Shown here: positions 27,505 to 61,841 of the stretch, in pieces | Position numbering within the stretch: the first letter of the stretch is position 1 | Layout: each line of letters begins with the position of its first letter | Source: Candidatus Aenigmatarchaeota archaeon | GTDB taxonomy: Archaea > Aenigmatarchaeota > Aenigmatarchaeia > GW2011-AR5 | Assembly (NCBI GenBank): GCA_016180945.1 | Contig: JACPAG010000001.1 | Location: forward strand, 133,856 to 197,855 | DNA length: 64,000 bases | Direction of reading: 5' to 3' | Notes under the pieces: generated by a model | Databases searched by the model: none | What the model was told of the DNA's origin: nothing | Seen by the model: the letters and a program-made list of their open reading frames with translations, nothing else | Translations under genes and position numbers: made by a program

Positions 27505-27540
27505 GTATTATTATAGCAAGGGAGCGGAGCGACCAAGCAT

Positions 27541-27582
27541 TATAAAATGGCAATCGACTTTTTGCCGGAGCAAAAAGGGGAT
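27541..27582 (+). repeat. Minimal A element before cdc48
   Basis: TATAAAATGGCA-ATC-GA-CTTTTTGC-CGGA-GCAAAAAG-GG-GAT then ATG. Confidence 0.85.
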
Positions 27583-30500
27583 ATGGAAGAAGATCTTAAA
27601 CTGAAGGTCGGCGAACTTACCGAAAGGGGCGACTTTGGCCGCGGCATAATCAGGATATCCGCAAAAGACATGAAGCGGCTGAGCATAACTGAAGGCGACA
27701 TCGTCGAGATGGAGGGCAAGCGCAAGACGGCCGCTATAGCCGTCCGTGCTTATCCCGCGGACGTTGGTCTTGATATCATAAGGATGGACGGCCTTGAACG
27801 AAGGAACTGCGGGGCCGGAATAGGAGAGCCGGTAAAAATAAAGAAGGCCGACGCCAAAGAGGCGAAGGCCGTGACAATCGCGCCTGCCCGCAAAGGCATA
27901 GCAATCCATATGGGCGGCAACCTGCTGAAGCAAAATCTTCTCATGAGGCCTCTGGTTACCGGAGACATAATTATCCCGAATCCTGTTGTCCAGGACAGGA
28001 GAAACCAATCTACGTTGTTCGAGCAGTTTTTCGGCATGGATTTCGGAGACTTTTTGTTCACCCCTTTCGGCGAGGAAAAATTCGTTGTTGTCAGCACCGA
28101 CCCTAAGGGCATCGTCCGCGTTACTAGGGCAACGGACGTAGAATTGCTGCCGCAGGCGACTACCCCGCTGGAAGAAAAAAATATACCGGACGTCACTTAC
28201 GAGGATTTGGGCGGCCTGCACGACGAGATACAGAAAGTCCGCGAGATGATTGAGCTGCCGCTGAAGCATCCTGAGCTTTTCGAGCGGCTTGGTATAGAGC
28301 CGCCAAAGGGGATTTTACTCCACGGACCGCCTGGCTGTTTGACAGGCGAAGCGCTTGTCGCTATAGAAGACGGACGGCTTGTAAGAATAGGTGAGCTTGG
28401 TAAAAATCTTGTTCCTGGAATATACGTAGCGGATTTACCAGTCTATCCGCCTGCCCATGCAAAAGCTATTCATGTTTACGACGTTCCTGAAACAGTGGAG
28501 GTCATTACTAAAAGCGGAAGAAGATTAAAAATGACTCCTAACCATCCTTTGATGACCGACAAAGGATGGGTGGAAGCTGAGAAGCTAAAAATCGGGGATA
28601 ATGTAAAGATATTTAATTGGCTTCCGAATCCACAGAATTATGTTCCAACAAACTTTGTGCTCAACGAAAAGAGACTTGTTAACGAAATAAAGGTTCCAAA
28701 AATATGGGATGAGAAGCTTGCAGAACTTATTGGCATATTTGTTGCAGAAGGCAGTATAGATGCCAGAAGAATAAAATTCACAATACATAGAGACGAAAGC
28801 GAGTTAAGAGAACGGATTGTTTCTCTGCTGCATGAAATATTCTCTGTTGATGTAACCGAAAGAGTTGGAATAACGAAAGCCGTTAGAAGAATAAGGGCTG
28901 CAAATAGAGGCATATGGGACTTTTTCAAACCTTTATGGACAAAAGAAAAAGTAATACCGCAAGAAATACTGCTTTCGCCCAATGCAGTGGCTTCAGGCTT
29001 CCTCAGGGGACTATTTGAAGGAGACGGCTCTGTCGTCAAGAAAAACAGGCATTTTGATAGGGCAGTAACCCTGAAATCAAAATCAAGGCAACTTCTTGAA
29101 GAAGTGCAGGTCCTTCTTTTGAGATGGGCGATAAGATCCTCTATTTACTCGTATAAAGAATTGTATGGCGAATCTAGCGTATTAAAAATCAGAGGACGGG
29201 ACAATCTGAAGAAGTACAAAGAAAACATAGGGTTTATTTCTAAAATAAAAACGGAAAAACTCGTAGAACAGCTTTCAACATATAAAAGGAAAACGCCCAA
29301 TGAAAATTCTGAATTCGAGCCTGTAAGGGAAGTCAGAAAGGTCAACGGCTGGGAAAGGGTTTATGATTTTGAAGTCCCAACAACACATTCATTTTTCAGC
29401 AATGGAATACTTTCGCATAATACAGGAAAAACATTGCTGGCCAAAGCCGTTGCCAACGAAAGCGGCGCGCGCTTTATAGTTATAAATGGCCCTGAGGTAA
29501 TGAGTAAATTTTACGGCGAGAGCGAGGAAAATTTAAGGAAAGTTTTCGAGCAGGCCGAGAAAAATGCGCCAAGCATAATTTTCATAGACGAAATCGATTC
29601 AATCGCGCCGAAGCGTGAAGAAGTCCGCGGCGAGGTGGAAAAACGCGTAGTGTCACAGATGCTTACCTTGATGGACGGATTGAAGAACAGGGGCAAGGTT
29701 ATTGTTATCGGAGCTACAAACATACCGAATTCTTTGGACCCGGCATTAAGAAGACCGGGAAGATTTGACCGTGAGATAGAACTGGGAGTGCCGAACAAAA
29801 TCGGCCGCAAAGAGATTTTAGAGATACATACAAGGGGCATGCCGCTGATGAAAGACGTCGAGCTGGACAAGATAGCCGAGATTACTTACGGCTACGTCGG
29901 CGCTGACATAGCCGCATTGTGCAAGGAAGCGGCCATGCACGCCCTGCGGCGCGTCTTGCCGGATATGGGAATAATAAAAGAAGACAAGCCTATTCCCCAG
30001 GAGGTTTTGAAAAAACTTGTTGTCAACAAAGAAGACTTTGATCATGCGCTCAAGATGGTCGAGCCGTCTGCGATGAGAGAGGTCTTGATAGAAATCCCGA
30101 ACGTCAAATGGGACGATATCGGCGGCTTGGAAAATATTAAACAGTCTTTGAAAGAAGTTATCGAATGGCCTCTGAAATACGGCGAATCGTTCAAGCGGCT
30201 CGGCATCAGGCCGCCAACAGGCGTTCTATTGTACGGCCCGCCGGGCTGCGGCAAAACCCTCCTGGCCAAGGCCGTCGCCAACGAATCCGGCGCAAACTTT
30301 ATTTCTGTCAAGGGACCCGAGCTGCTGTCAATGTGGGTCGGCGAGAGCGAACGGCATGTCAGGGACGTATTTAGAAGAGCGAAGCAGGTCGCACCGGCAA
30401 TAATATTTTTCGATGAAATAGACGCGCTGGTACCGCGCCGCGGATACGGCACAGACAGCCAGGTGACCGAACGGGTTGTTTCACAACTGTTAGGCGAGAT

Positions 30501-30936
30501 TTCCGGGCTGGAAGATTTGCACGATGTAATAGTCATAGCCAGCACAAACAGGCCGGATATCATAGACCCCGCATTGCTTCGTCCTGGTAGATTCGACCGC
30601 CAGGTCCTGGTCCCGACGCCTGATGAAAAAGCAAGGCTTGAAGTGCTCAAAGTCCATACAAGGGGGATGCCGCTTGCAAATGATGTGAATATCGAAAAGC
30701 TGGCAAGGGAGACAGGAGGATTTTCCGGAGCAGATCTGGAATCTCTCGCCCGCGAAGCAGGCATGCACGCCATGAGAAAGGATACAGAGGCAAAAGAAGT
30801 CACGGCCCGGGACTTCAGCCAGGCGCTGAAGGAGATAAAGCCGTCGGTCAGCGAAGAGATGAACCAGTTCTACGAGTCGATGATAAAGAAAAGAAAGTCG
30901 CAGAAAATGGAAGAAGAGATTCTGTACACTGGTTAA
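27583..30936 (+). CDS. cdc48: CDC48/VAT AAA ATPase containing an intein
   Basis: Two AAA modules ([19 protein letters not shown]). Confidence 0.95.
28336..29421 (+). mobile_element. Intein with LAGLIDADG endonuclease in the Cdc48 D1 Walker A motif
   Basis: GPPG|CLTG...SHN|TGKT; [14 protein letters not shown] and [10 protein letters not shown] motifs. Confidence 0.93.
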
Positions 30937-33171: not shown

Positions 33172-34083
33172 TTATTTTGTAGTTACTATAGGTTCTTCTT
33201 CTACTATAATCGTGTGTTCATATTGCGAAACAAGTCCGTTCGCAACCTCCTTCAGCGGCGCGTAGTCGTAAATGACGCCTTTTTCCCGCAATTCTTTTAA
33301 TGCAATCCGTATTTTGAACAGCGAATCCGGCAAACCAAAGCTTGCTGCTTCCTTGTCCATCAGCCATCTTTCCGCAAAAGGCAGTCCGTTGAACCTTTGC
33401 ACGAAATCTATGATTTTTCGTGCGTCCTGGTTCCTGACGGGTCTTGATTTTAGAAACATGAATATCAGTATCGGTTCCGTTTCCTTTATTCTTCCCGCGC
33501 CCGCCGTGGCAAAAGGCTCTATTGCTATCACCTGGCCTTCCGATAGACGTTTCAGCCCGTTAAATCTTACATTCGGAATCTGCGGCTCTGCGTGCAGATG
33601 ATAATTTTCAAGCCCGTGGCCTGTAAGGTTTGAAACCGGATTGAAGCCGTAGCCGCGTATGGTTTCCTCTATTTTCGAAGAGATGTCAGAAATAAGCGCG
33701 CCCGGCTTTGCAACGGCAACAGCATTTTCCAATGCCGTTTTAGACGCTTCTGAAAGTTTCTCATGGGCTTCGCTAAACGATATTGTGTAAGCAGTGTCAG
33801 CCACGTACCCGTCTACATGAACACCCAAGTCAACCTTTAGTACGTCGTTTCTTTTTAGCGTCGTTTCATCCCCTTTGTACGGCGTGTAGTGCGCGGCCAG
33901 TTCATTCAGCGAAAGGTTTAACGGAAAAGCCGGATGCCCGCCCTTTTCTTTTATCATGCCTTCAAGTTTCCCGGCTATCTCAACAAGCTTTATTCCCGGT
34001 TTTATGATGTTTCGTCCTTCTTCCATCACTTCAGAAGCGATTTTACCCGCCCTGATGTATTTTTCTTTTATCTCGTCGTCCAT
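33172..34083 (-). CDS. map: Type II methionine aminopeptidase
   Basis: AAHYTP, DLGVHVDGYVAD, GHG, IEPF and QYEHT motifs. Confidence 0.95.
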   Translation of the reverse strand: MDDEIKEKYIRAGKIASEVMEEGRNIIKPGIKLVEIAGKLEGMIKEKGGHPAFPLNLSLNELAAHYTPYKGDETTLKRNDVLKVDLGVHVDGYVADTAYTISFSEAHEKLSEASKTALENAVAVAKPGALISDISSKIEETIRGYGFNPVSNLTGHGLENYHLHAEPQIPNVRFNGLKRLSEGQVIAIEPFATAGAGRIKETEPILIFMFLKSRPVRNQDARKIIDFVQRFNGLPFAERWLMDKEAASFGLPDSLFKIRIALKELREKGVIYDYAPLKEVANGLVSQYEHTIIVEEEPIVTTK

Positions 34084-34124
34084 ATCCCCTTTGCTCCGGC
34101 AAAGTCGATTGCCATATTATTATA
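34084..34124 (-). repeat. Minimal A element before map
   Basis: TATAATAATATGGCAATCGACTTTGCCGGAGCAAAGGGGAT then ATG. Confidence 0.85.
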
Positions 34125-53530: not shown

Positions 53531-53626
53531 TCGTCTTCTGGAAACTCCAGAAAGCTTTGCTTTCTGCGAGTTAAACCCAAGGGCGTTTCTTTATCCCCTA
53601 ATTTCGTTAGTCGATAACCATATTAC
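53517..53626 (-). repeat. A element (53592-53626) followed by a B twin-hairpin (about 53517-53571)
   Basis: TAATATGGTT-ATC-GA-CTAA..TTAG-GG-GAT; CTC-G-CAGAAAGC-AAA-GCTTTCTG-GAG...CAGAAGAC-GAAT-GTCTTCTG. Confidence 0.75.
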
Positions 53627-53689
53627 TTATATATTTTCTTTTCCCAAGGCTTTTCTTTTTAAAAAGAAAAGGCTTAAAGAAAAGGGCTT

Positions 53690-55050: not shown

Positions 55051-55125
55051 TTCTCTTTTGCTCAATAAACGCTAGAAAGTAGGCGTGCCAATAGATTATC
55101 ATTCAAGGAAAAATAAATAATAATA

Positions 55126-55192
55126 ATAATATGGCACTCGACTTGAAACAGACTGACGCACAGCAGTGCGTCTAGTTATTGAGGGGAGGTAT
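55126..55192 (+). repeat. A element with a nested C palindrome (55155-55172)
   Basis: TAATATGGCA-CTC-GA-CTT...GAG-GG-GAG. Confidence 0.75.
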
Positions 55193-55645: not shown

Positions 55646-55766
55646 GCTCCCGTCGTCTAGTCCGGTCAAGGATAGGAGCCTTTCGCTTTTGTATAATATG
55701 GCAGTCGACTTTTGCCATAGCAAAAGGGGATAGCTTCGGACGCGAGTTCAAATCTCGCCGGGAGCA
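55646..55766 (+). tRNA. tRNA-Glu(TTC) with a 46-nt 37/38 intron (55686-55731) consisting mostly of an A element
   Basis: GCTCCCG/CGGGAGC acceptor; GGAGC-CTTTCGA-GCTTC anticodon arm after splicing. Confidence 0.88.
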
Positions 55767-56956
55767 TCATACTCAAAACTTAGATAGTAGTTCTTCTCAC
55801 TAGCAGCACAATGGCTGGGTGGCTACAATTGTAGTCACCCAGAGGCAAAACTACTTATATTTGTAGTCACCTATAGTTATTATGCATATAGAAAAAAGGC
55901 GTGTCGGCAAGAGGACAAAATACTATCTTGCCCATGCTCTCAGGGACGGCAGGCAAGTCAAAAAAATAAGGGTTTATTTGGGTGCTGATAGCAAAGCCGT
56001 TAAGGGGAGGAGGGCTTCTGCCGAGCAAATAATCATGGAAAGAATTAAGGCATATGAAATAATTTCCGATCCTTTTCGCCATGCGCTTAATACAAGGGAA
56101 ATTGAAGATATCAAGTCCCTGGAAGCAAAGGGCGGCATAAGAATAAAGCATCTAAGCGAAGATGATTGGAAAACATTTATAGAATCCTTCGTTTACGACA
56201 CAAATGCCATCGAAGGGTCTTCCGTCACATTTACAGAAGTAACAGAAATACTGGAAAAGCAGGAGTGGCCCAAGGAGAGGGAGAAATGGGAGATATCGGA
56301 AACGTACGGCGTGAGGGATGCCATACAGCTGATAAGAAGCACTAAGGAGCATTTGTCATTGGAGCTCATGAAAGAGCTTCATAATGTCTGCTTCAGGAAT
56401 TCCAAGCCGTTTGCAGGCAAATTCCGTGAGAAAGGTCAGGAAGTTGCCGTTGTCGACGGGCAGGGAAGGGTAATTCATAGGGGCGCCCCTTCAGGCATGG
56501 TCGTCAAGCTTCTCAAGGACCTAGTTTCATGGTACAGCAAGAACAGGAGAAAATATCCTGCGATTGTCCTGGCAGTCGTGGTGCATAATCAGTTCGAGAC
56601 TGTACACCCTTTTGCTGACGGCAATGGACGGGTCGGAAGGCTTTTGCTCAACAATATTCTTCTCCGGCACAACAAGCCGCCGGTGAATATAGAACTGAAA
56701 AACAGGAAGAAATACTATGCAGCGCTGGGAGAATATCAAGAAAATGGAAATATAAGGCCGATGATAGAGCTTATACTCAAGGAATACAGGAATTTGAAGA
56801 AACTGCTGAAGAAATGACGCCAAAGGCGTCTGTCTACAGTTGAATACAGCCCATGAAAATGTAGTCACCTAGCACAGTTCTCTTACCGGCATAAATCCAT
56901 TGTTGTTCAGCCAAAAGTGGGCGCCTGTTTTTTCATCCGGGGTTCGCCGGGAGCAT
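55755..56956. mobile_element. Fic islet at the tRNA-Glu 3' end
   Basis: TCGCCGGGAGCAT at 55755-55767 is repeated at 56944-56956. Confidence 0.6.
55882..56817 (+). CDS. Fic-domain protein
   Basis: HPFADGNGRVGR and TNAIEG motifs. Confidence 0.9.
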   Translation: MHIEKRRVGKRTKYYLAHALRDGRQVKKIRVYLGADSKAVKGRRASAEQIIMERIKAYEIISDPFRHALNTREIEDIKSLEAKGGIRIKHLSEDDWKTFIESFVYDTNAIEGSSVTFTEVTEILEKQEWPKEREKWEISETYGVRDAIQLIRSTKEHLSLELMKELHNVCFRNSKPFAGKFREKGQEVAVVDGQGRVIHRGAPSGMVVKLLKDLVSWYSKNRRKYPAIVLAVVVHNQFETVHPFADGNGRVGRLLLNNILLRHNKPPVNIELKNRKKYYAALGEYQENGNIRPMIELILKEYRNLKKLLKK

Positions 56957-60032: not shown

Positions 60033-60152
60033 ATAATAGGAATACGACTGGAAGGAGCAAAAATTATAAAATGGCTATCGACTCAAGCAAAGACCAGAGG
60101 TCTTTGATGCATCAAAAGACTTTGTCTTTTGATTGTGCGGAGGCAAGGGGAT
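60033..60152 (+). repeat. Tandem A heads with nested B (60084-60135)
   Basis: Removing B restores ATC-GA-CTTGC-GGAG-GCAAG-GG-GAT. Confidence 0.8.
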
Positions 60153-60543
60153 GATAGATAAAGTCGGAGCCCTCATACTTGTTGACAGAAAGATTCTGCT
60201 CGCCCGGCCGAAAAACAAAAATGCGTTTCTCATACCCGGCGGCAAAAGAGAAGGCGATGAAAGCGACGAGCAGACGCTGCGCCGTGAAATCATGGAAGAA
60301 TTGGGAACGGAAATAATAACAATGAAACACTACGGCACATTCCAGGACGAGGCCGTCTTTGGAGGCATGGTAAAGATTGCCGCTTATCTCTGCGGCGTGA
60401 AAGGCAGGATGAAGCCGCAGTCCGAGATAGAAGAAATCCGCTTTTTCGGAAAAGACGAGCTTCAGAAATCAAGCGGGGAATATATAGGAAGCGTGATGAA
60501 GAATCATATTTTGCCGAAGCTCATAGCGGACGGGCTATTGTGA
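60151..60543 (+). CDS. NUDIX hydrolase
   Basis: PGGKREGDESDEQTLRREIMEELG. Confidence 0.9.
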   Translation: MIDKVGALILVDRKILLARPKNKNAFLIPGGKREGDESDEQTLRREIMEELGTEIITMKHYGTFQDEAVFGGMVKIAAYLCGVKGRMKPQSEIEEIRFFGKDELQKSSGEYIGSVMKNHILPKLIADGLL

Positions 60544-61075: not shown

Positions 61076-61841
61076 CCACGGATAAACCTTTTATACTTTA
61101 AGTTGAGTATTATAGCTGTTTTTTGGGATGTGGATTTGACAATCCATATCGAACGGGCGCAAGGTTTGGCAGTTAATTCTTTGCGTAAACTTTACCGATG
61201 AGACTCAATACTCATACGTTCCGTGGAGATAGAATCTTGCGGAATTTGAGTCTGCAGCACAAGGCGTTGTTTTAGACATTGGGCAAAGCCCATCTATGAA
61301 AAAACATTTCAGGCTGCAGAAAATCGTGAAGGCGTGATTGGAATAGTTATGCCAGATGGAAGCACGAATAGGCAGAACACTATCAGAGATGATAGGGAAA
61401 AGTGTAGTAGTTCTCCCAACAATTCCGGTTGATCCCGCCGGAGACTACCATTATCAGGATTCGGCTAAGCCATGCGAAGCAGAGCCGCAAGGCTCGCTGT
61501 ACTGCTCAGTAACGCGTAGTTAACCTGCCCTTAGCAAGGGGATAACCGCGCGAAAGTGCGGATAATACCCTATAGGCAATAATGGCTGGAAGGCCTCTTT
61601 GCTGAAAGCCGCAAGGCAGCTAAGGATGGGACTGCGTCGGATTAGGCTGATGTTAGGATAAAAGCCTAACATACCTGTAATCCGTACGGGTCGTGAGAGC
61701 GATGGCCCGGAGATGGTTTCTGAGACATGAAACCAGGTCCTACGGGACGCAGCAGGTACGAAAACTTCGCAATGCATGAAAGTGCGACGAGGGGATCCTG
61801 AGTGGGTTCGACTTTGTCGAACTCTTTTGTCTACTGTAAAA

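Follow-up and report, generated by a model that had tools for sequence, protein, structure and literature searches.

The predicted intron of a tRNA-Glu(UUC) gene in an Aenigmatarchaeota genome is filled by a copy of a dispersed gene-leader cassette

In a 64,000-nucleotide (nt) stretch of DNA from Candidatus Aenigmatarchaeota archaeon (GCA_016180945.1, contig JACPAG010000001.1, positions 133,856 to 197,855; the window), a tRNA-Glu(UUC) gene is interrupted by a 46-nt insert that consists almost entirely of a copy of a cassette dispersed over the same genome. We propose that this insert, 55686-55731, is probably an ordinary intron at the canonical 37/38 position, to be removed through a bulge-helix-bulge (BHB) motif, and that its body has been taken over by a DNA copy of the lineage-specific cassette, which would be a passenger there. 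In front of genes, the cassette brings four parts: a TATA-like box, a box of 11 nt, a perfect hairpin and, shortly ahead of the start codon, the purine box GGGGAK. In a compact genome, introns, gene spacers, tRNA leaders and rRNA inserts would be harmless sites for such repeats, because the RNA is removed there or never translated, and in a tRNA gene present only once, the copy may owe its survival to the fact that it contributes the splicing signal itself. The original prediction, made from the letters of the window, had recognized the intron as essentially one of these elements. What we add is a model-based assignment to the family, a structural reason for the splice-site coincidence, a comparative dating of the intron and the recurrence of the cassette in other tRNA genes and in both orientations. 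Judged by titles and abstracts, literature searches yielded no description of such repeats in tRNA introns of Aenigmarchaeota.

The gene itself is well defined. ARAGORN with introns allowed and the Rfam tRNA model both place a 5' exon at 55646-55685 (+) and a 3' exon, including the discriminator base, at 55732-55766 (+). Over 55646-55766 the Rfam model scores 43.3 bits, covering model positions 1-71 with a 49-nt insert inside the anticodon loop, and the joined exons give a standard cloverleaf. The 5' exon sequence places the 5' strand of the anticodon stem at 55675-55679, C32 at 55680, the anticodon TTC at 55682-55684 and G37 at 55685. For the intron between them, ARAGORN and a BHB scanner return the same limits, 55686-55731 (+), as had been predicted. 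Unlike the halves of split genes, which are encoded separately and joined in trans, the two tRNA-Glu halves are contiguous around the insert, and an ordinary promoter-like AT box lies upstream of the 5' exon. ARAGORN without introns and a gathering-threshold Rfam scan of the window both overlooked the gene, and no Rfam family besides tRNA matches the locus at E <= 0.01. A motif search of the assembly (987,615 bp in 9 contigs, 84% complete; here G000) returned one other Glu-type gene, Glu(CUC) on contig C4, and no second Glu-UUC gene in these 84% of the genome.

The last 45 nt of the intron carry, in sense orientation, a 5-nt tag followed by all elements of the cassette. The tag TTTTG (55687-55691, +), delimited by BHB scan and folding, repeats the 5' arm of the cassette hairpin. 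It is followed by the TATA-like box TATAATA (55692-55698, +), identified from an alignment of 35 leader copies in which the consensus AATTATAATA stands immediately 5' of TGGC. The 5' box TGGCAGTCGAC (55699-55709, +) was defined by the cassette alignment; its GTC is the 5' strand of a closing helix and its GA part of an internal loop. The perfect hairpin TTTTGC-CATA-GCAAAA (55710-55725, +) is evident from the sequence, and the 3' box GGGGAT (55726-55731, +) was placed by the BHB scan. The earlier reading of these letters was correct, and the TATA-like box (within family variation), TGGCnnTCGAC, the perfect hairpin and GGGGAK occur in the order and spacing of the family. From 35 short leader copies, none of them linked to a tRNA, a covariance model was trained that aligns to the intron over all 41 of its 41 positions (32.6 bits, E 2e-7), so that the assignment to the element family stands both by pattern and by model. 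The pattern ATGGCNNTCGACTN{8,24}AGGGGA occurs three times in the window (cdc48 leader, map leader and tRNA-Glu intron) against 0 in 100 shuffles, and 53 times in the G000 genome against 0 for a reversed control. The intron copy departs from the leader copies in what follows: a start codon 0-7 nt after GGGG is missing and the 3' exon takes its place. Its closing helix, GTC...GAT with a G-U first pair, spans a GA/GG loop, and according to folding this helix and the splicing fold are mutually exclusive.

The precursor contains exactly one mismatch-free BHB motif, of the strict hBHBh' type, with cuts after 55685 and after 55731. The central helix joins CTTT (C32-U35, 55680-55683) to GGGG (55726-55729), and the bulges are CGC (C36-G37-C, 55684-55686) and ATA (A-U-A38, 55730-55732). 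The outer helix h is the anticodon stem of 5 bp, while the inner helix h' of 6 bp combines the TTTTG tag behind the 5' splice site with the 3' arm of the cassette hairpin, a pairing also returned by RNAfold. The observation that the 3' splice site falls at the end of GGGGAT is thereby confirmed, and the coincidence is best explained by the 3' box of the cassette doubling as a strand of the splicing motif. In the precursor, GGGG would pair with C32-U33-U34-U35 to form the 4-bp central helix, AU together with A38 would provide the 3' bulge, and tag and hairpin arm would close the inner helix; EndA would then cut after G37 and after the last base of the cassette, and RtcB would join the exons. 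The tRNA-Glu introns of relatives end with GAAG, GGAG or AAAG followed by AA or AT at the position of GGGGAT, which may thus be regarded as one more case of four purines pairing with CUUU, then A and A/U. The required enzymes are encoded in G000, EndA as a protein of 205 amino acids (aa; G000:C3:37289-37906) with both domains (PF02778, PF01974) and RtcB with a match of 545 bits; a full-length candidate for RNase P RNA (49 bits) scores below the family threshold. Passages of PMC5829648 describe alpha4-type EndAs with an extra loop in DPANN lineages as accompanying heavily disrupted tRNA genes.

The intron most likely predates the cassette, its body having been replaced by a cassette copy in the lineage of G000. 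This inference is drawn because tRNA-Glu(UUC) carries a 37/38 intron with unrelated content in six of the 10 other genera of the family f1 that were examined (G017, G010, G004, G003, G014 and G022; no further genome of the genus of G000 was among those compared). Families f6 and f7 have the intron as well; it is absent from G009/G023, G007, G012 and G011 within f1, and also from G220/G219. The comparison of relatives proposed with the original prediction is hereby made: none of these tRNA-Glu(UUC) introns holds a cassette, and their bodies do not align. The cassette itself is narrowly distributed. Among 70 genomes of the order, the covariance model gives 75 hits in G000, 19 in G220 and 8 in G219 (E <= 0.001), 1-6 hits in each of 13 further genomes and none in the remaining 54, with a patchy occurrence even within one genus. 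The strict pattern is found in 6 of 371 genomes of the phylum, all in the family of G000. The locus is identical in DNA contigs of the groundwater runs X2 and X4, which come from the same study as the likely source and are hence not independent. Relatives in X5 and X9 cover tRNA-Glu with 9-12 changed letters and 13-15 gap letters, and two X9 contigs leave exactly 55686-55731 unmatched; they suggest that related organisms exist with a similar, and with a different or absent, insert. In the metagenome and genome contig collections, 22 nt of the 5' exon have no exact match, and a degenerate 3'-exon pattern retrieves two loci, an unrelated Glu-CUC gene and a g10-like gene without a 37/38 intron.

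Cassette-filled 37/38 introns are not confined to tRNA-Glu. Four other genera have them as well, in tRNA-Ser, tRNA-Arg or tRNA-Lys, one of the copies being antisense; in total, 59 cassette hits were examined in loci of relatives, 30 of which precede open reading frames (ORFs). In tRNA-Ser(GGA) of G220, the 37/38 intron measures 45 nt and shares 92% identity with the Glu intron of G000 over 47 nt; a further cassette copy of G220 lies in another tRNA, inside a non-canonical insert. A strict motif is also present in tRNA-Arg(UCU) of G021 and G215 (CTTC/GGAG + TA) and in tRNA-Lys(CUU) of G214 (CTCT/GGAG + AA), G018 being likewise by near-identical sequence; the Arg and Lys assignments are our own reading of the anticodon loops, these genes being mis-set or missed by ARAGORN. 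Where the splice site falls relative to GGGG depends on the anticodon, at +2 in Glu and at +4 in Arg and Lys, as predicted by a co-option of the 3' box. In the Arg intron copies, common to two genera, the TATA-like box has decayed to GTAGGA and GTAGAA, which fits a box without a role inside the intron. The orthologous tRNA-Ser(GGA) genes of G010 (L148, C2:50980-51290) and G220 (L109, C69) carry the cassette in antisense and sense, respectively, the antisense copy sitting in an intron that keeps its own 3' end. The presence of both orientations in one tRNA argues for DNA copies landing in a tolerated site.

Within G000, introns are a common place for repeats. ARAGORN predicts introns in 21 of 26 tRNAs, and 11 of the 16 introns of at least 20 nt match elsewhere in the genome (BLAST E < 1e-3), over up to 94 nt at 96% identity. 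The introns near 37/38 in tRNA-Ser(GGA) and tRNA-Lys(CUU) contain repeats other than the cassette. The 16S rRNA gene extends over 3,947 nt compared to a model of 1,478 positions, and one of its inserts holds a cassette copy without the TATA box. Together with tRNA-Ser(GGA) and its two orientations, these cases support the suggestion of the original prediction that introns shelter the element. Copies also occur next to tRNA genes. A cassette (36.6 bits) is flush with the 5' end of tRNA-Asp(GUC), the last G of its GGGGAG being tRNA position 1, and G010 likewise has a copy flush with the first base of a tRNA. A class II (Leu/Ser-like) tRNA (G000:C2:208597-208774, +; L021) has ~92 nt of inserts including a cassette copy (33.6 bits); it is annotated as Met(CAT) by ARAGORN but may be Leu(CAA), including a micro-exon of 7 nt, if two introns are assumed.

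Apart from introns, the cassette is foremost an element of gene starts. A looser regular expression retrieves 119 distinct copies in G000, a few of them spurious. The insert between the two boxes measures at most 26 nt in 77 of the 119, the others having extra hairpin modules of up to ~170 nt. In 81 of the 119 copies, a start codon opening an ORF of at least 50 codons follows GGGG within 0-7 nt, with a mode of 3 nt (42 copies). In the fold, the hairpin is followed outward by one C-G pair, a conserved 2x2 GA/GG loop and a closing helix of 3-4 bp. Its closing helix is supported by covariation: without any pairing filter, the base before CGAC and the base after GGGG pair in 74 of 79 copies (C-G 34, A-T 34, T-A 5 and G-T 1, the last being the intron copy). 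In the 35-row alignment, the rows of which had been chosen with a pairing filter, pairing extends to 92.1% of cells (shuffles: 72.9%), and covariation scores 0.442, compared to 0.115 when shuffled (0 of 500 shuffles as high). Across genera, the closing helix reads AUC/GAU, CUC/GAG, CUA/UAG, AUA/UAU or AUAC/GUAU.

In front of genes, we read the cassette as a portable promoter with a short leader, an interpretation that is derived from the geometry of its TATA-like box, from short spacers and from the comparison of cdc48 orthologues. For the 901 genes of G000 that lack a cassette, TATA-like hexamers have a sharp maximum at -29/-28 relative to the ATG, a spacing that corresponds to leaderless mRNAs, and gene starts fall into two nearly exclusive classes, 138 with TATA (-31 to -27) and 118 with a Shine-Dalgarno-like GGTGA at -9, with 5 having both. 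In the cassette, the TATA-like box starts near -37 and GGGGA at -7. Where a divergent spacer measures 24-49 nt, this box is the sole TATA-like sequence available to the downstream gene, and the cdc48 orthologues of 15 relatives lack a cassette, being preceded by GGTGAT and an ordinary TATA box. A start ~23-25 nt behind the TATA box, inside the hairpin or just past it, would leave the 5' strand of the covarying helix out of the RNA, a difficulty for this reading; one way out is that the helix may matter on read-through transcripts, where it would sequester GGGGAU. It is uncertain whether GGGGAU acts as an ordinary Shine-Dalgarno sequence: the 3' end of 16S rRNA is GGATCACCTCC, and the GGTGA of non-cassette genes peaks at -9, compared to a start of GGGGA at -7 in the cassette. 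Two other readings of the cassette were rejected. A kink-turn or box C/D interpretation of the GA/GG loop fails since the covarying pairs fix a register without a 3-nt bulge and Rfam matches are limited to tRNA. The cassette, which contains ATGGCA, is also not a coding N-terminal extension, as inserts of 11, 13, 14, 16 and 18 nt put this ATG both in and out of frame.

Several observations weigh against an ordinary intron with a passenger copy. Wherever a 37/38 intron holds the cassette in sense (five cases), only 0-2 nt separate the 3' box from the 3' splice site and nearly all of the intron is cassette, a pattern not predicted if copies had landed at random in older introns. About seven of the 59 hits in relatives, a count that includes events common to related genomes, are located in tRNA introns, far above the intron share of non-coding DNA. 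In the tRNA-Ser of G220, GGGG pairs with only two of the four loop bases, so the place of the cassette is not in every case explained by its fit to the anticodon loop. The central helix of tRNA-Glu has one G-C and three G-U pairs, and the minimum free energy of the pre-tRNA (-26.4 kcal/mol) is 10.6 kcal/mol lower than the energy of the best fold that includes the canonical motif (-15.8 kcal/mol); in eight introns of relatives, most of them with a weaker inner helix, this gap is 2.3-8.8 kcal/mol. A 5' tag matching the hairpin arm, present in the intron copies, occurs in 3 of 63 short copies where 0.7 are expected; it must have arrived with the copy or have pre-existed. Splicing, as well as the absence of other processing, is moreover presumed from the DNA. 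The near-complete filling, the over-representation in introns and the rarity of the tag keep a rival alive in which the introns were made rather than taken over. A cassette with its matching tag would then be an intron-forming element that, arriving behind position 37, creates a spliceable BHB intron at once, since in nearly every anticodon loop C32-U33-N-N can pair with its G-rich 3' box. The spread of cassette-only introns at 37/38 over four tRNAs (Glu, Ser, Arg, Lys) and five genera agrees with such a gain, as do the likeness of the G000 Glu and G220 Ser introns despite their different tRNAs and the intron-less tRNA-Glu(UUC) of four of the 10 other genera. We nevertheless consider it unlikely. 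A 37/38 intron of tRNA-Glu(UUC) exists with unrelated content in six genera and in two more families, the G000 introns near 37/38 in tRNA-Ser(GGA) and tRNA-Lys(CUU) are occupied by other repeats, the antisense copy of G010 lies inside an intron with its own 3' end retained, and the needed tag is present in so few short copies. A transposase was not found either, the Y1 family giving only a 29-residue fragment of 21.2 bits (G000:C4:20707-20793, +), below the cut-off and the sole such signal in the 84%-complete genome. The farther-reaching proposal that the cassette is an intron-forming and promoter-carrying mobile module, which, its hairpin arm closing the inner helix, would explain repeated intron gain or turnover in these DPANN tRNAs and whose TATA box would give the 3' half its own start, appears distinctly improbable to us.

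The original prediction also entertained that the dispersed copies derive from, or still behave as, introns. In that scenario, the splicing endonuclease would cut the leader copies as intron-like RNA at GGGGAK and so trim the mRNAs to leaderless forms, or the copies would go back to a tRNA intron that escaped. Where the cassette ends on its 3' side, functional RNAs indeed have their 5' ends: the distance is 0-3 nt to the start codon in most copies and 0 nt to tRNA +1 in two genera. In formal terms, hairpin, GGGG and AU also correspond to one half of a BHB motif, the inner one. Under lax settings, 18 of 119 copies show a BHB-like motif whose cut falls no more than 3 nt from the end of the cassette, against 5 of 119 random segments, an excess to be expected of a run of four G, which pairs with any pyrimidine run. 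With flanking helices of at least 4 bp, only 2 of the 119 copies have the motif at their 3' end, the tRNA-Glu intron and the copy at 60062-60153, where it is at chance level. Leader copies lack the exon-side partner, the covariation (74 of 79 pairs in G000, and across genera) fixes the 2x2 GA/GG loop rather than two 3-nt bulges, and the cassette is missing from the tRNA-Glu introns of relatives. We therefore reject leader copies as BHB substrates and regard an intron nature or origin of them as highly improbable. The suspected tie between the repeats and the splicing machinery holds insofar as the splicing motif takes one of its strands from the 3' box, also in other tRNAs, and does not extend to the leader copies. 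It would also be very unlikely that the intron cassette is an active promoter, with a start near 55722-55728 that yields the 3' half as an RNA of its own, as a stage toward split tRNA genes. Its TATA-like box is not aberrant for the family, in short divergent spacers the cassette box is the sole TATA-like sequence available to the downstream gene, cassettes stand flush with tRNA 5' ends (tRNA-Asp of G000; G010), and split tRNA halves with their own promoters are described for Nanoarchaeum in the passages concerned of PMC4090602. Yet the halves are contiguous behind a normal promoter-like AT box, a transcript from GGGG would miss the strand required for helix h', and in the older Arg intron copies the box has decayed. 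Finally, that the repeat has disrupted the tRNA gene and left it non-functional is scarcely credible. The weak central helix with its three G-U pairs could be so explained, and at 84% completeness another Glu-UUC gene could lie outside the assembly, in which none was found; the exons, however, score 43.3 bits as tRNA, the BHB motif has an exact geometry, its flanking helices measuring 5 and 6 bp, and in tRNA-Arg the same architecture is conserved between genera with compensatory changes in the hairpin.

Further copies and neighbours in the window complete the description. The elements ascribed earlier to the leaders of cdc48 and of the M24-peptidase gene map were both recovered, by covariance model and Pfam: one directly precedes cdc48 at 27538-27583 (+; ATG 27583; 39.6 bits), the other the methionine-aminopeptidase-type gene (Peptidase_M24) at 34083-34124 (-; 50.5 bits, a copy of the training set). 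A long-form cassette with an extra hairpin insert between the boxes (55122-55189, +; 34.3 bits) stands before a DUF5654 gene ~450 nt upstream of the tRNA, and the copy at 60062-60153 (+; covariance model, BHB scan) is likewise a long form before an ORF. A short copy at 53592-53630 (-; 47.6 bits, also in the training set) is not followed by an ORF, no start codon having been found. Downstream of tRNA-Glu, a gene for a Fic/DOC-family protein occupies 55882-56817 (+). The cdc48 gene (27583-30936, +) carries an intein (Pfam CDC48_N, AAA, Intein_splicing, LAGLIDADG_3), and its open frames in relatives range from ~760 to ~2,270 aa, which suggests presence or absence of the intein. The 16S rRNA gene begins at 61422 and runs past the window end (G000:C8:195277-199223; L108 278-4224); it has inserts of 52, 95, 57, 701 nt and more, dense with hairpin repeats, and a further insert of ~700 nt seems to precede the GGATCACCTCC 3' end, beyond the Rfam match. 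Elsewhere in G000, tRNA-Asp(GUC) (C7:46043-46260, -; L022) was missed by ARAGORN and has inserts after the anticodon arm and in the T-loop, and tRNA-Leu(UAG) (C4:127868-127972, +), called Pro(AGG) by ARAGORN, has an intron apparently at the non-canonical position 30/31. The Y1-like fragment is situated ~70 nt upstream of a cassette copy at C4:20866. At two loci of G220 (L117 and L115; C26 and C29), the cassette and a 16-nt linker together make up a ~61-nt unit that is directly repeated in tandem, at least three of these units following one another.

Compared to known systems, the tRNA-Glu intron resembles canonical archaeal BHB introns in its 37/38 position, its strict hBHBh' geometry, its intact exons and the EndA and RtcB encoded in the genome. 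It differs in that its body is a cassette otherwise found before protein genes, which supplies one strand each of the central and inner helix. Transposed tRNA introns of Thermoproteales were reportedly treated by Fujishima et al. in 2010. In its relevant passages, PMC4090602 describes near-identical introns in tRNAs of different identity and the proposal that the BHB requirement defines their sites. The Glu and Ser introns of G000 and G220 are alike in this respect, whereas here ~100 copies are gene leaders, a few are tRNA leaders, one lies in an rRNA insert and one intron copy is antisense, and most introns of G000 hold other repeats. For the split tRNA genes of Nanoarchaeum equitans and Caldivirga, PMC4090602 and PMC3218864 describe a 3' half that is transcribed from a separate promoter and starts with a leader complementary to the 5' half. 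Similarly, the predicted promoter-like box 55692-55698 lies just upstream of the 3' half and is followed by a stretch pairing with the anticodon loop of the 5' half, but the two halves of tRNA-Glu remain contiguous in one gene. Dispersed structured repeats that carry or create promoters or fill spacers include the Correia elements of Neisseria, REP, BIME and REPIN of Proteobacteria and the PATEs of haloarchaea. The cassette shares with them its short, hairpin-centred form, its location in non-coding DNA, its dozens of copies and its patchy presence between relatives. It is different in having no terminal inverted repeats, a fixed polarity to the downstream gene, a 3' end 0-7 nt from the start codon and a closing helix over a GA/GG loop with compensatory change across genera, and in that no Y1 transposase was found in G000. 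The tRNA-Trp intron that encodes a box C/D guide RNA is a further example of an intron holding a recognizable module present elsewhere too, yet C/D boxes are missing from the cassette, and a kink-turn is incompatible with the register fixed by covariation.

For the gain and replacement of archaeal tRNA introns and their conversion into split genes, the families of similar introns in Thermoproteales are, to our knowledge, the only large-scale case in print. The tRNA-Glu intron described here has a canonical position and a content that can be traced to a dispersed cassette with ~100 copies outside introns, and would therefore offer a concrete route for intron turnover at the DNA level. There is also a warning for annotation, since standard tRNA finders missed an essential gene and first-ATG calling can hit the ATG of the cassette itself. 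The cassette also puts a promoter-like box exactly where the 3' half of a split tRNA would require one. If the cassette were indeed an intron-forming, promoter-carrying module, it would represent a living first step from an intron-containing to a split tRNA gene.

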